37,817 bases of DNA, from positions 1 to 37,817 of the forward strand of contig JAGTUZ010000021.1 of NCBI GenBank assembly GCA_018224415.1, read 5' to 3'. Below the pieces are notes generated by a model. That model had not been told where the DNA came from. It made no database searches and worked only from the letters and a program-made list of their open reading frames with translations. Both the position numbers and the translations under genes were made by a program. Source of the stretch: Bacteroidota bacterium (GTDB lineage Bacteria > Bacteroidota > Ignavibacteria > SZUA-365). Position 1 is the first letter of the stretch. Every line of letters starts with the position of its first letter. Positions 36,778 through 37,817 of the stretch are shown here, in pieces.

Positions 36778-37817
36778 ATGAGCAACCGGAAGAAAGTGAC
36801 GATCGACGGCAACGAAGCCGCCGCATTCGTCGCCCACAAAACCAATGAAGTATGCGCTATCTACCCGATCACGCCCAGTTCCAACATGGGCGAGTGGGCC
36901 GACGCCTGGTCGGCGGTCGGACGGACCAACATCTGGGGCACGGTCCCGGTCGTGTCCGAACTGCAGAGCGAAGGCGGCGCCTCGGGCGCGGTGCACGGCG
37001 CCCTGTAGACGGGATCGCTGACAACGACCTTCACGGCGTCGCAGGGACTGCTGCTGATGATCCCCAACATGTACAAGATCGCCGGCGAACTCACTTCGAC
37101 GGTGTTCCATGTCTCCGCCCGCACCGTGGCGTCGCATGCGCTGTCGATTTTCGGTGACCACTCCGACGTCATGGCCGTGCGCCAGACGGGCTGGGGCCTG
37201 CTTTCGTCCAACTCCGTGCAGGAGGTCATGGACTTCGCGCTCATCGCCCAGGCCGCCACGCTGCGCGCCCGCATCCCCTTCGTGCATTTCTTCGACGGCT
37301 TCCGCATCTCGCACGAGGTCATGAAAATCGAGGAACTGACGGACGAGGACATGCTCGCCATGATCCCGGACGACCTCATCGCCGAGCACCGCGCGCGCGC
37401 GCTCAGTCCGGACAATCCCGTGCTGCGTGGCACGGCGCAGAACCCGGACGTCTTCTTCCAGGCCCGTGAGACCGTCAATCCGTTCTACAATGCCTGCGCC
37501 GACATCGTGCAGCAGACCATGGACCGCTTCGCCGAGGTGGTCGGCCGCCGCTACAACCTCTTCGACTACTACGGCGCCGCTGATGCCGACCGCGTCATCA
37601 TCATGATGGGTTCGGGCGTGGGCGCCGCGGAGGAAATGGTTGACTGGCTCAACAGCCGCGGCGAGAAGGTCGGACTGCTGATCGTGCGCCTGTTCCGGCC
37701 GTTTTCCATGAAGCATTTCCTCGGTGCTCTCCCCGCCACCGTGAAAGCCATCGCCGTGCTTGACCGCACGAAGGAACCCGGCGCCGCCGGCGAACCGCTG
37801 TACCAGGACGTGCACAC
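36778..37817 (+). CDS. nifJ: Pyruvate:ferredoxin (flavodoxin) oxidoreductase, 3'-truncated by the window, with an in-frame TAG at codon 77
   Basis: [40 protein letters not shown], then in the same frame [73 protein letters not shown]. No further stop to the window end. Confidence 0.93.

Follow-up and report, generated by a model that had tools for sequence, protein, structure and literature searches.

Does the amber codon that interrupts an otherwise intact gene for pyruvate:ferredoxin oxidoreductase (PFOR) in a metagenome-assembled bacterium reflect a wrong base in the assembly, a young nonsense mutation, or a codon that the cell reads through? The stretch analysed, called the window hereafter, is a whole contig (C21) of 37,817 nucleotides from a metagenome-assembled genome (MAG G000) of 2.97 Mb, which consists of 332 contigs with an N50 of 11 kb, has a GC content of 60.5%, and is 88% complete. 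An earlier note on this DNA had described a single in-frame TAG in a PFOR gene, which is confirmed and falls at codon 77, and had offered three explanations for it, i.e., an error, a very recent nonsense mutation, or readthrough by a suppressor tRNA or pyrrolysine.

The interrupted gene and its surroundings

The positions of the gene fragment, its internal stop, and the neighbouring features are collected in Table 1. The PFOR frame opens with an ATG, and the 269 sense codons behind the TAG run up to the window end, which is the end of the contig. Read with X at the stop, the fragment covers profile positions 2–340 of 1167 of TIGR02176, a family of single chains of ~1,170–1,230 aa; its 346 codons score 604 bits against the family cut-off of 911 bits, the gene being cut by the contig end. 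The N-terminal part additionally matches the POR_N domain (PF01855) with 267 bits. The 3' rest of the gene was not found in this MAG, in which the fragment is the one NifJ-type PFOR copy detected. The N-terminal domains of the solved homodimeric NifJ-type PFORs (PDB 1b0p, 7plm, 6cin) match at E-values of 2e-141 to 5e-132, although the window holds the first 346 of ~1,200 codons.

Table 1. Position and character of the PFOR fragment, its internal stop, and adjoining features in the window
Feature	Position	Strand	Remark
aspS (aspartate-tRNA ligase), divergent neighbour, intact	34463..36238	-	NF001750, 825 bits
5' part (346 codons) of NifJ-type pyruvate:ferredoxin (flavodoxin) oxidoreductase gene	36778..37817	+	TIGR02176, 604 bits; cut by contig end
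In-frame TAG, codon 77	37006..37008	+	one base (C>T at 37006) from the Gln codon CAG
Hairpin proposed earlier	37011..37064	+	z = -0.67; no Rfam family
Downstream open frame from Met94	37057..37817	+	restart here would lose Thr32 and Glu65

The fragment is 88–91% identical to six orthologues of the same genus, four of which lie in open frames of ~1204 aa. Leaving the stop aside, it deviates at 4 of 273 columns that are invariant in the six, and this lies within the range of 1–12 private changes found at such columns in the congeners themselves; thus, the gene shows no other decay. The earlier note had made the same observation for some 270 in-frame codons with a strong GC3 bias, and it holds for the 269 counted here, in which GC3 is 0.88, compared with 0.84 before the TAG. 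The divergent aspS gene, which is also present inside the fetched flank of 7 of the 24 relative PFOR loci, identifies the locus as orthologous. GC-rich inverted and direct repeats were observed in the interval that separates aspS from the PFOR gene (36298–36369), including a perfect 20-bp palindrome at 36350–36369, and a related 20–22 bp word occurs on five other contigs.

The stop divides residues that are expected to act together. Glu65, a residue with a functional role in PFOR, lies before the TAG, as does Thr32. Thr32 and Arg115 of the fragment align with Thr31 and Arg114 of the PFOR of D. africanus, which bind pyruvate in that enzyme according to PMC5020499. Since Thr32 and Arg115 are located on opposite sides of the TAG, neither the 76-aa piece nor a product restarted at Met94 would, judging from the sequence, contain a complete pyruvate site. 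Truncated PFOR products are absent from the protein collection, in which the proteins of the neighbouring genes are present.

Codon 77 in relatives and in conspecific DNA

Alignment of orthologues, a check suggested in the earlier note, gave Gln at codon 77 throughout the 24 best relative loci (CAG in 20, CAA in 4). A NifJ-type match was found in 37 of 40 relatives, with a stop in none of the best matches; two relatives (G019 and G035) gave no such match and one (G034) a distant match only. In one genome of the same order (G025), a second PFOR match (C42:4904–5425) includes one TAA within the alignment. Across 201 genomes of the phylum, the PFOR motif was matched 57 times, with CAR at this codon in 56 cases and TAG in MAG G000 alone. 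The motif carrying a stop was recovered once from genome_contigs, in a cyanobacterial MAG with TAA, and not at all from metagenome_contigs; both sets may omit records near the window, and in the latter the exact strain pattern matched neither in its C nor in its T version. In the cyanobacterial record (JBCCDL010000309.1, L033:1500–1530), the TAA occupies the same PFOR codon of a gene that is otherwise open, and represents a lesion at this Gln position that arose sporadically and independently. A shorter version of the stop motif gave hits in two other genomes of the order; these lie outside the PFOR loci, remain below the reversed-pattern control, and were discarded.

The statement that NifJ-type PFORs typically carry Gln at this position therefore stands for this lineage; however, the solved homodimeric enzymes have Ala there, which indicates that the site is tolerant and non-catalytic.

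Public sequencing runs provided DNA closer to the window. Two runs of one study, X1 and X2, carry most of the stretch, and runs X5–X21, including one RNA run, hold less than 0.1 of its words. A comparison over 20 kb gave 22 positions at which X1 departs from the window and 30 at which X2 does, with 13 differences common to both; the low number for X1 places it in the same species. Neither run is identical to the window, and neither is established as the source of the MAG. An X1 contig of 596 nt (36450–37045, depth 8.7) has C at 37006, i.e., CAG, in a sequence that differs from the window at 2 other letters and in which 37006 lies 40 letters from the contig end. T at 37006 occurs in no X1 contig, the comparison being one of contigs, which drop rare variants. 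The X2 contigs do not cover 37006 and thus say nothing on codon 77. In X3 and X4, which belong to other studies, contigs of ~95% identity also have C. Together with CAG in 20 of 24 orthologues, the C at 37006 in contigs of X1, X3, and X4 supports the proposed origin of the stop from CAG. Since both the near-identical DNA and the compared relatives have Gln at codon 77, the TAG is not a change of genetic code.

The differences between the window and X1 or X2 are informative in themselves. Among the 34 that fall in coding sequence, 27 are synonymous, 6 are missense, and the last is the stop at codon 77; the synonymous share expected at random is 24%, and the population is thus under purifying selection, with the stop as an outlier. 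At the sites where X1 and X2 both depart from the window, the coding differences number 10, of which 9 are synonymous; this indicates that the window represents a real, distinct strain and that the assembly is mostly accurate nearby. The TAG lies 30–40 nt from a stretch where PFOR contigs of many organisms pile up: the summed depth in X1 rises to ~1,090 at 37037–37097, owing to contigs of other organisms, and the conspecific contigs break there. Further upstream, one contig in each of X1 and X2 follows the window as far as 36479 and then continues as similar but diverged sequence for 149–255 or more bases; its source is probably a related species or a second haplotype of the region upstream of PFOR.

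A probable wrong base, or a possible young nonsense allele

The best explanation, and one that we consider moderately probable, is that the consensus of this fragmented metagenome assembly carries one incorrect letter at 37006, T in place of C, which creates the TAG. A low read depth, together with the nearby stretch common to the PFOR genes of many organisms, could have allowed an error or a rare variant to enter the consensus; the low depth at the TAG site is itself deduced from MAG fragmentation only. The living population would then likely carry CAG and produce the full-length enzyme. This explanation is favoured because the MAG is fragmented, the gene breaks off, the enzyme is intact in conspecific DNA, and stops occur in the assembly without frameshifts.

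The last point derives from a screen for internal stops in which 2.8 of the 5.24 Mb of a same-family genome (G016) served as the reference, yielding 1,085 true-frame alignments with 391,118 codons, which constitute part of the gene set. From the 56 stops inside these alignments, 50 failed the flank filter, being at alignment edges or having poor flanks. Four of the six that passed (on C189, C12, C232, and C287) were dropped by eye as non-coding extensions of the reference ORF. Two clear internal stops were left, the TAG at codon 77 and one TAA, so the count of further genes with an in-frame TAG, which had also been suggested, came to no clear case in the 1,085 alignments. An earlier genome-wide count of 25 'good' stops consisted mostly of antisense shadow frames and is superseded. 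No frameshift candidate emerged from the 391,118 aligned codons, in a test that needs 60 aligned codons on each side. If both internal stops were errors, the rate would amount to ~6e-5 substitutions per base (95% range 7e-6 to 2e-4). Given the codon usage, 1.64% of substitutions would create TAG, compared with 0.85% for TAA and 0.49% for TGA, and TAG is thus the likeliest stop to arise from one substitution.

The other internal stop, the TAA at C289:3022–3024 (L178), lies in an otherwise intact gene of the Peptidase_M14 family (zinc carboxypeptidase). At its site, six congeners have TAT in three cases, TAC in two (Tyr in five), and TTT (Phe) in one; the C-terminal domain of the protein recurs in many proteins of the genus.

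Spurious pseudogenes in draft assemblies, the subject of a Cooley-type analysis, offer a close parallel. According to PMC11017572, spurious pseudogenes arise from low coverage, low-quality reads raise the number of internal stops and not that of frameshifts, and sequence errors accounted for 6 of the 10 pseudogenes that were put to the test. Our case is similar to those described there in that one substitution creates a stop in a conserved gene of which near-identical DNA is intact, and in that stops without frameshifts appear in a fragmented assembly; however, error was proven there by resequencing or reassembly, whereas contigs were compared here. Two considerations count against a wrong base: the assembly looks mostly accurate nearby, as the real strain differences imply, and C>T changes are the most frequent natural source of nonsense codons.

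Ranked next is a real and very recent mutation of Gln77 to a stop, private to the assembled strain, which remains a tentative, if serious, contender. It would have release factor 1 (RF1) end translation after 76 residues and PFOR activity lost, with respiration and 2-oxoacid dehydrogenases possibly serving in its place. Young nonsense alleles with a single lesion are established in bacterial genetics, and the present case resembles such nascent pseudogenes in the CAG>TAG transition, the lack of further decay, and the confinement to one strain. In accordance with a real allele, the window belongs to a distinct strain with mostly synonymous private differences, and 3 of 40 relatives are without a NifJ-type match. 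Moreover, the MAG encodes two heme-copper oxidase subunit I genes, two fused E1 alpha-beta 2-oxoacid dehydrogenases that score below the PDH cut-offs, and a VorB-type oxidoreductase along with a third POR_N match, all of which suggest that loss of PFOR might be tolerated with oxygen.

A real allele is, however, at odds with the absence of other decay in the 346 codons and with the intact state of the gene in every one of the six congeners as well as in the X1 contig of the same species, the T being known from a consensus. In addition, most of the sampled population would have to carry the knockout of a conserved central enzyme. Signs of a deamination hotspot are lacking: a search of the MAG for C5 DNA methylases gave none, and TGCA and CTGCAG, at 0.86 and 0.98 of expectation, are not strongly depleted. 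The weighing of error against allele, in which error is the likelier side, draws on contigs of runs X1–X4.

The main consequence is one of annotation: PFOR would be missing from pathways reconstructed on the basis of this MAG, even though the species very probably possesses the enzyme. A real T would signify an ordinary loss, at the level of the strain, of anaerobic pyruvate oxidation.

Possible decoding of TAG, and further features of the window

All readings in which the ribosome passes the TAG are, taken jointly, highly improbable. The machinery of the MAG points to TAG as a normal stop: RF1 scores 514 bits, over its cut-off, with the GGQ and PxT motifs present and no stop inside, and among 635 gene ends with an aligned C-terminus, TGA was counted 397 times, TAA 151 times, and TAG 87 times. 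Opposite Gln of the reference, the MAG has 5,709 CAG, 568 CAA, and a single TAG (1 of 6,278). One TAG inside a TIGR03182 match on C175 was rejected as a candidate, as it is the regular end of a split transketolase gene. As a separate observation, CTAG is the most depleted 4-mer in the MAG, at 0.13 of Markov expectation. Depletion of CTAG is common in bacteria.

An amber-suppressor tRNA encoded in the unassembled 12% of the genome, by which the only PFOR of the strain would stay a working enzyme despite a real TAG, is extremely improbable, and this part of the earlier proposal is accordingly weakened. ARAGORN and Infernal agree on 29 assembled tRNAs, none with the anticodon CUA; this set is incomplete, as it is without tRNAs for Asn, Asp, Cys, and Ile, and a further tRNA could thus be missing from it. 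Most inserted residues might also work, considering that Ala is tolerated at the position in solved PFORs. However, six of the seven tRNAs that stand one anticodon step from CUA are present with normal anticodons (Gln-CUG, Tyr, Trp, Ser-CGA, Leu-CAA, and Lys-CUU), and the seventh, Glu-CUC, was not found among the 29. CUA was called by ARAGORN only at a lowered threshold, three times among ~890 records and never within the 29 Infernal matches, and internal TAG codons are not in excess, with one TAG against one TAA. Broader interest would attach only to a natural suppressor, for which the analysis gave no indication; if true, it would constitute a suppressor pair from the wild, carried by a sediment bacterium, and an initial step of the kind from which reassignment of TAG to Gln could follow.

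Insertion of pyrrolysine, programmed readthrough guided by a hairpin, and genome-wide recoding of TAG to Gln are largely refuted and next to negligible in probability, the codon being TAG and a foldable stretch following it but nothing else speaking for them: in the 88%-complete MAG, PylS and the methylamine methyltransferase family MttB (PF06253), a client of pyrrolysine decoding, have no match, the best PylB hit reaches 23.6 bits against a cut-off of 348, none of the 30 genomes of the order (the MAG and 29 relatives; 23 of the 30 at least 90% complete) has a PylS match above the cut-off, RF1 is intact, TAG terminates genes such as that on C175, and no other TAG at the PFOR motif was met with in genome_contigs or metagenome_contigs. 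Of the searches that the earlier note had recommended, those for pylS, for pylB, and for a CUA tRNA among the 29 assembled tRNAs thus came back empty for this MAG, and its pyrrolysine option finds no support, while error and recent mutation stand. None of the papers listed describes pyrrolysine in PFOR in its title or the opening of its abstract.

The pyrrolysine system (pylTSBCD) and genetic code 15, taken with their generally known features, share with this locus that TAG stands in frame, at a Gln position, within the gene of an enzyme. They differ from it in that pylS, pylB, a CUA tRNA, and a trimethylamine methyltransferase were not found in the MAG, and in that TAG is a common terminator beside an intact RF1 and occurs as a single case in the genes examined. 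Overall, the pattern is that of a spurious pseudogene or of a young nonsense allele, and in the features tested it does not fit the pyrrolysine system or code 15.

The hairpin behind the TAG is a chance-level structure and no known recoding element. Its arms pair as the earlier note had described, and the suspicion voiced there that such pairing arises easily is borne out, as the fold of -18.5 kcal/mol is equalled by 52 of 200 shuffles. Among 326 segments of 60 nt from the same PFOR gene, 45% fold equally well; at the corresponding place, a fold of equal or greater stability occurs in 7 of the 24 orthologues that encode Gln, and the fold varies among the orthologues. A search of 36200–37817 against Rfam gave no match near a gathering score (best E 0.75).

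Elsewhere in the window, at 24799–27619 on the forward strand, a MoxR-type AAA ATPase gene (bpMoxR, PF20030) is followed by an ORF of 524 aa, which has no NCBIfam match at 1e-15 and which we presume may encode a vWA partner of bpMoxR. An intergenic tandem array at 27614–27740 comprises ~15 copies of the 8-bp unit CCTCACGY, and similar arrays occur on 10 other contigs (C300, C69, C80, C327, C143, C196, C184, C83, C99, and C264), some of them at contig ends.
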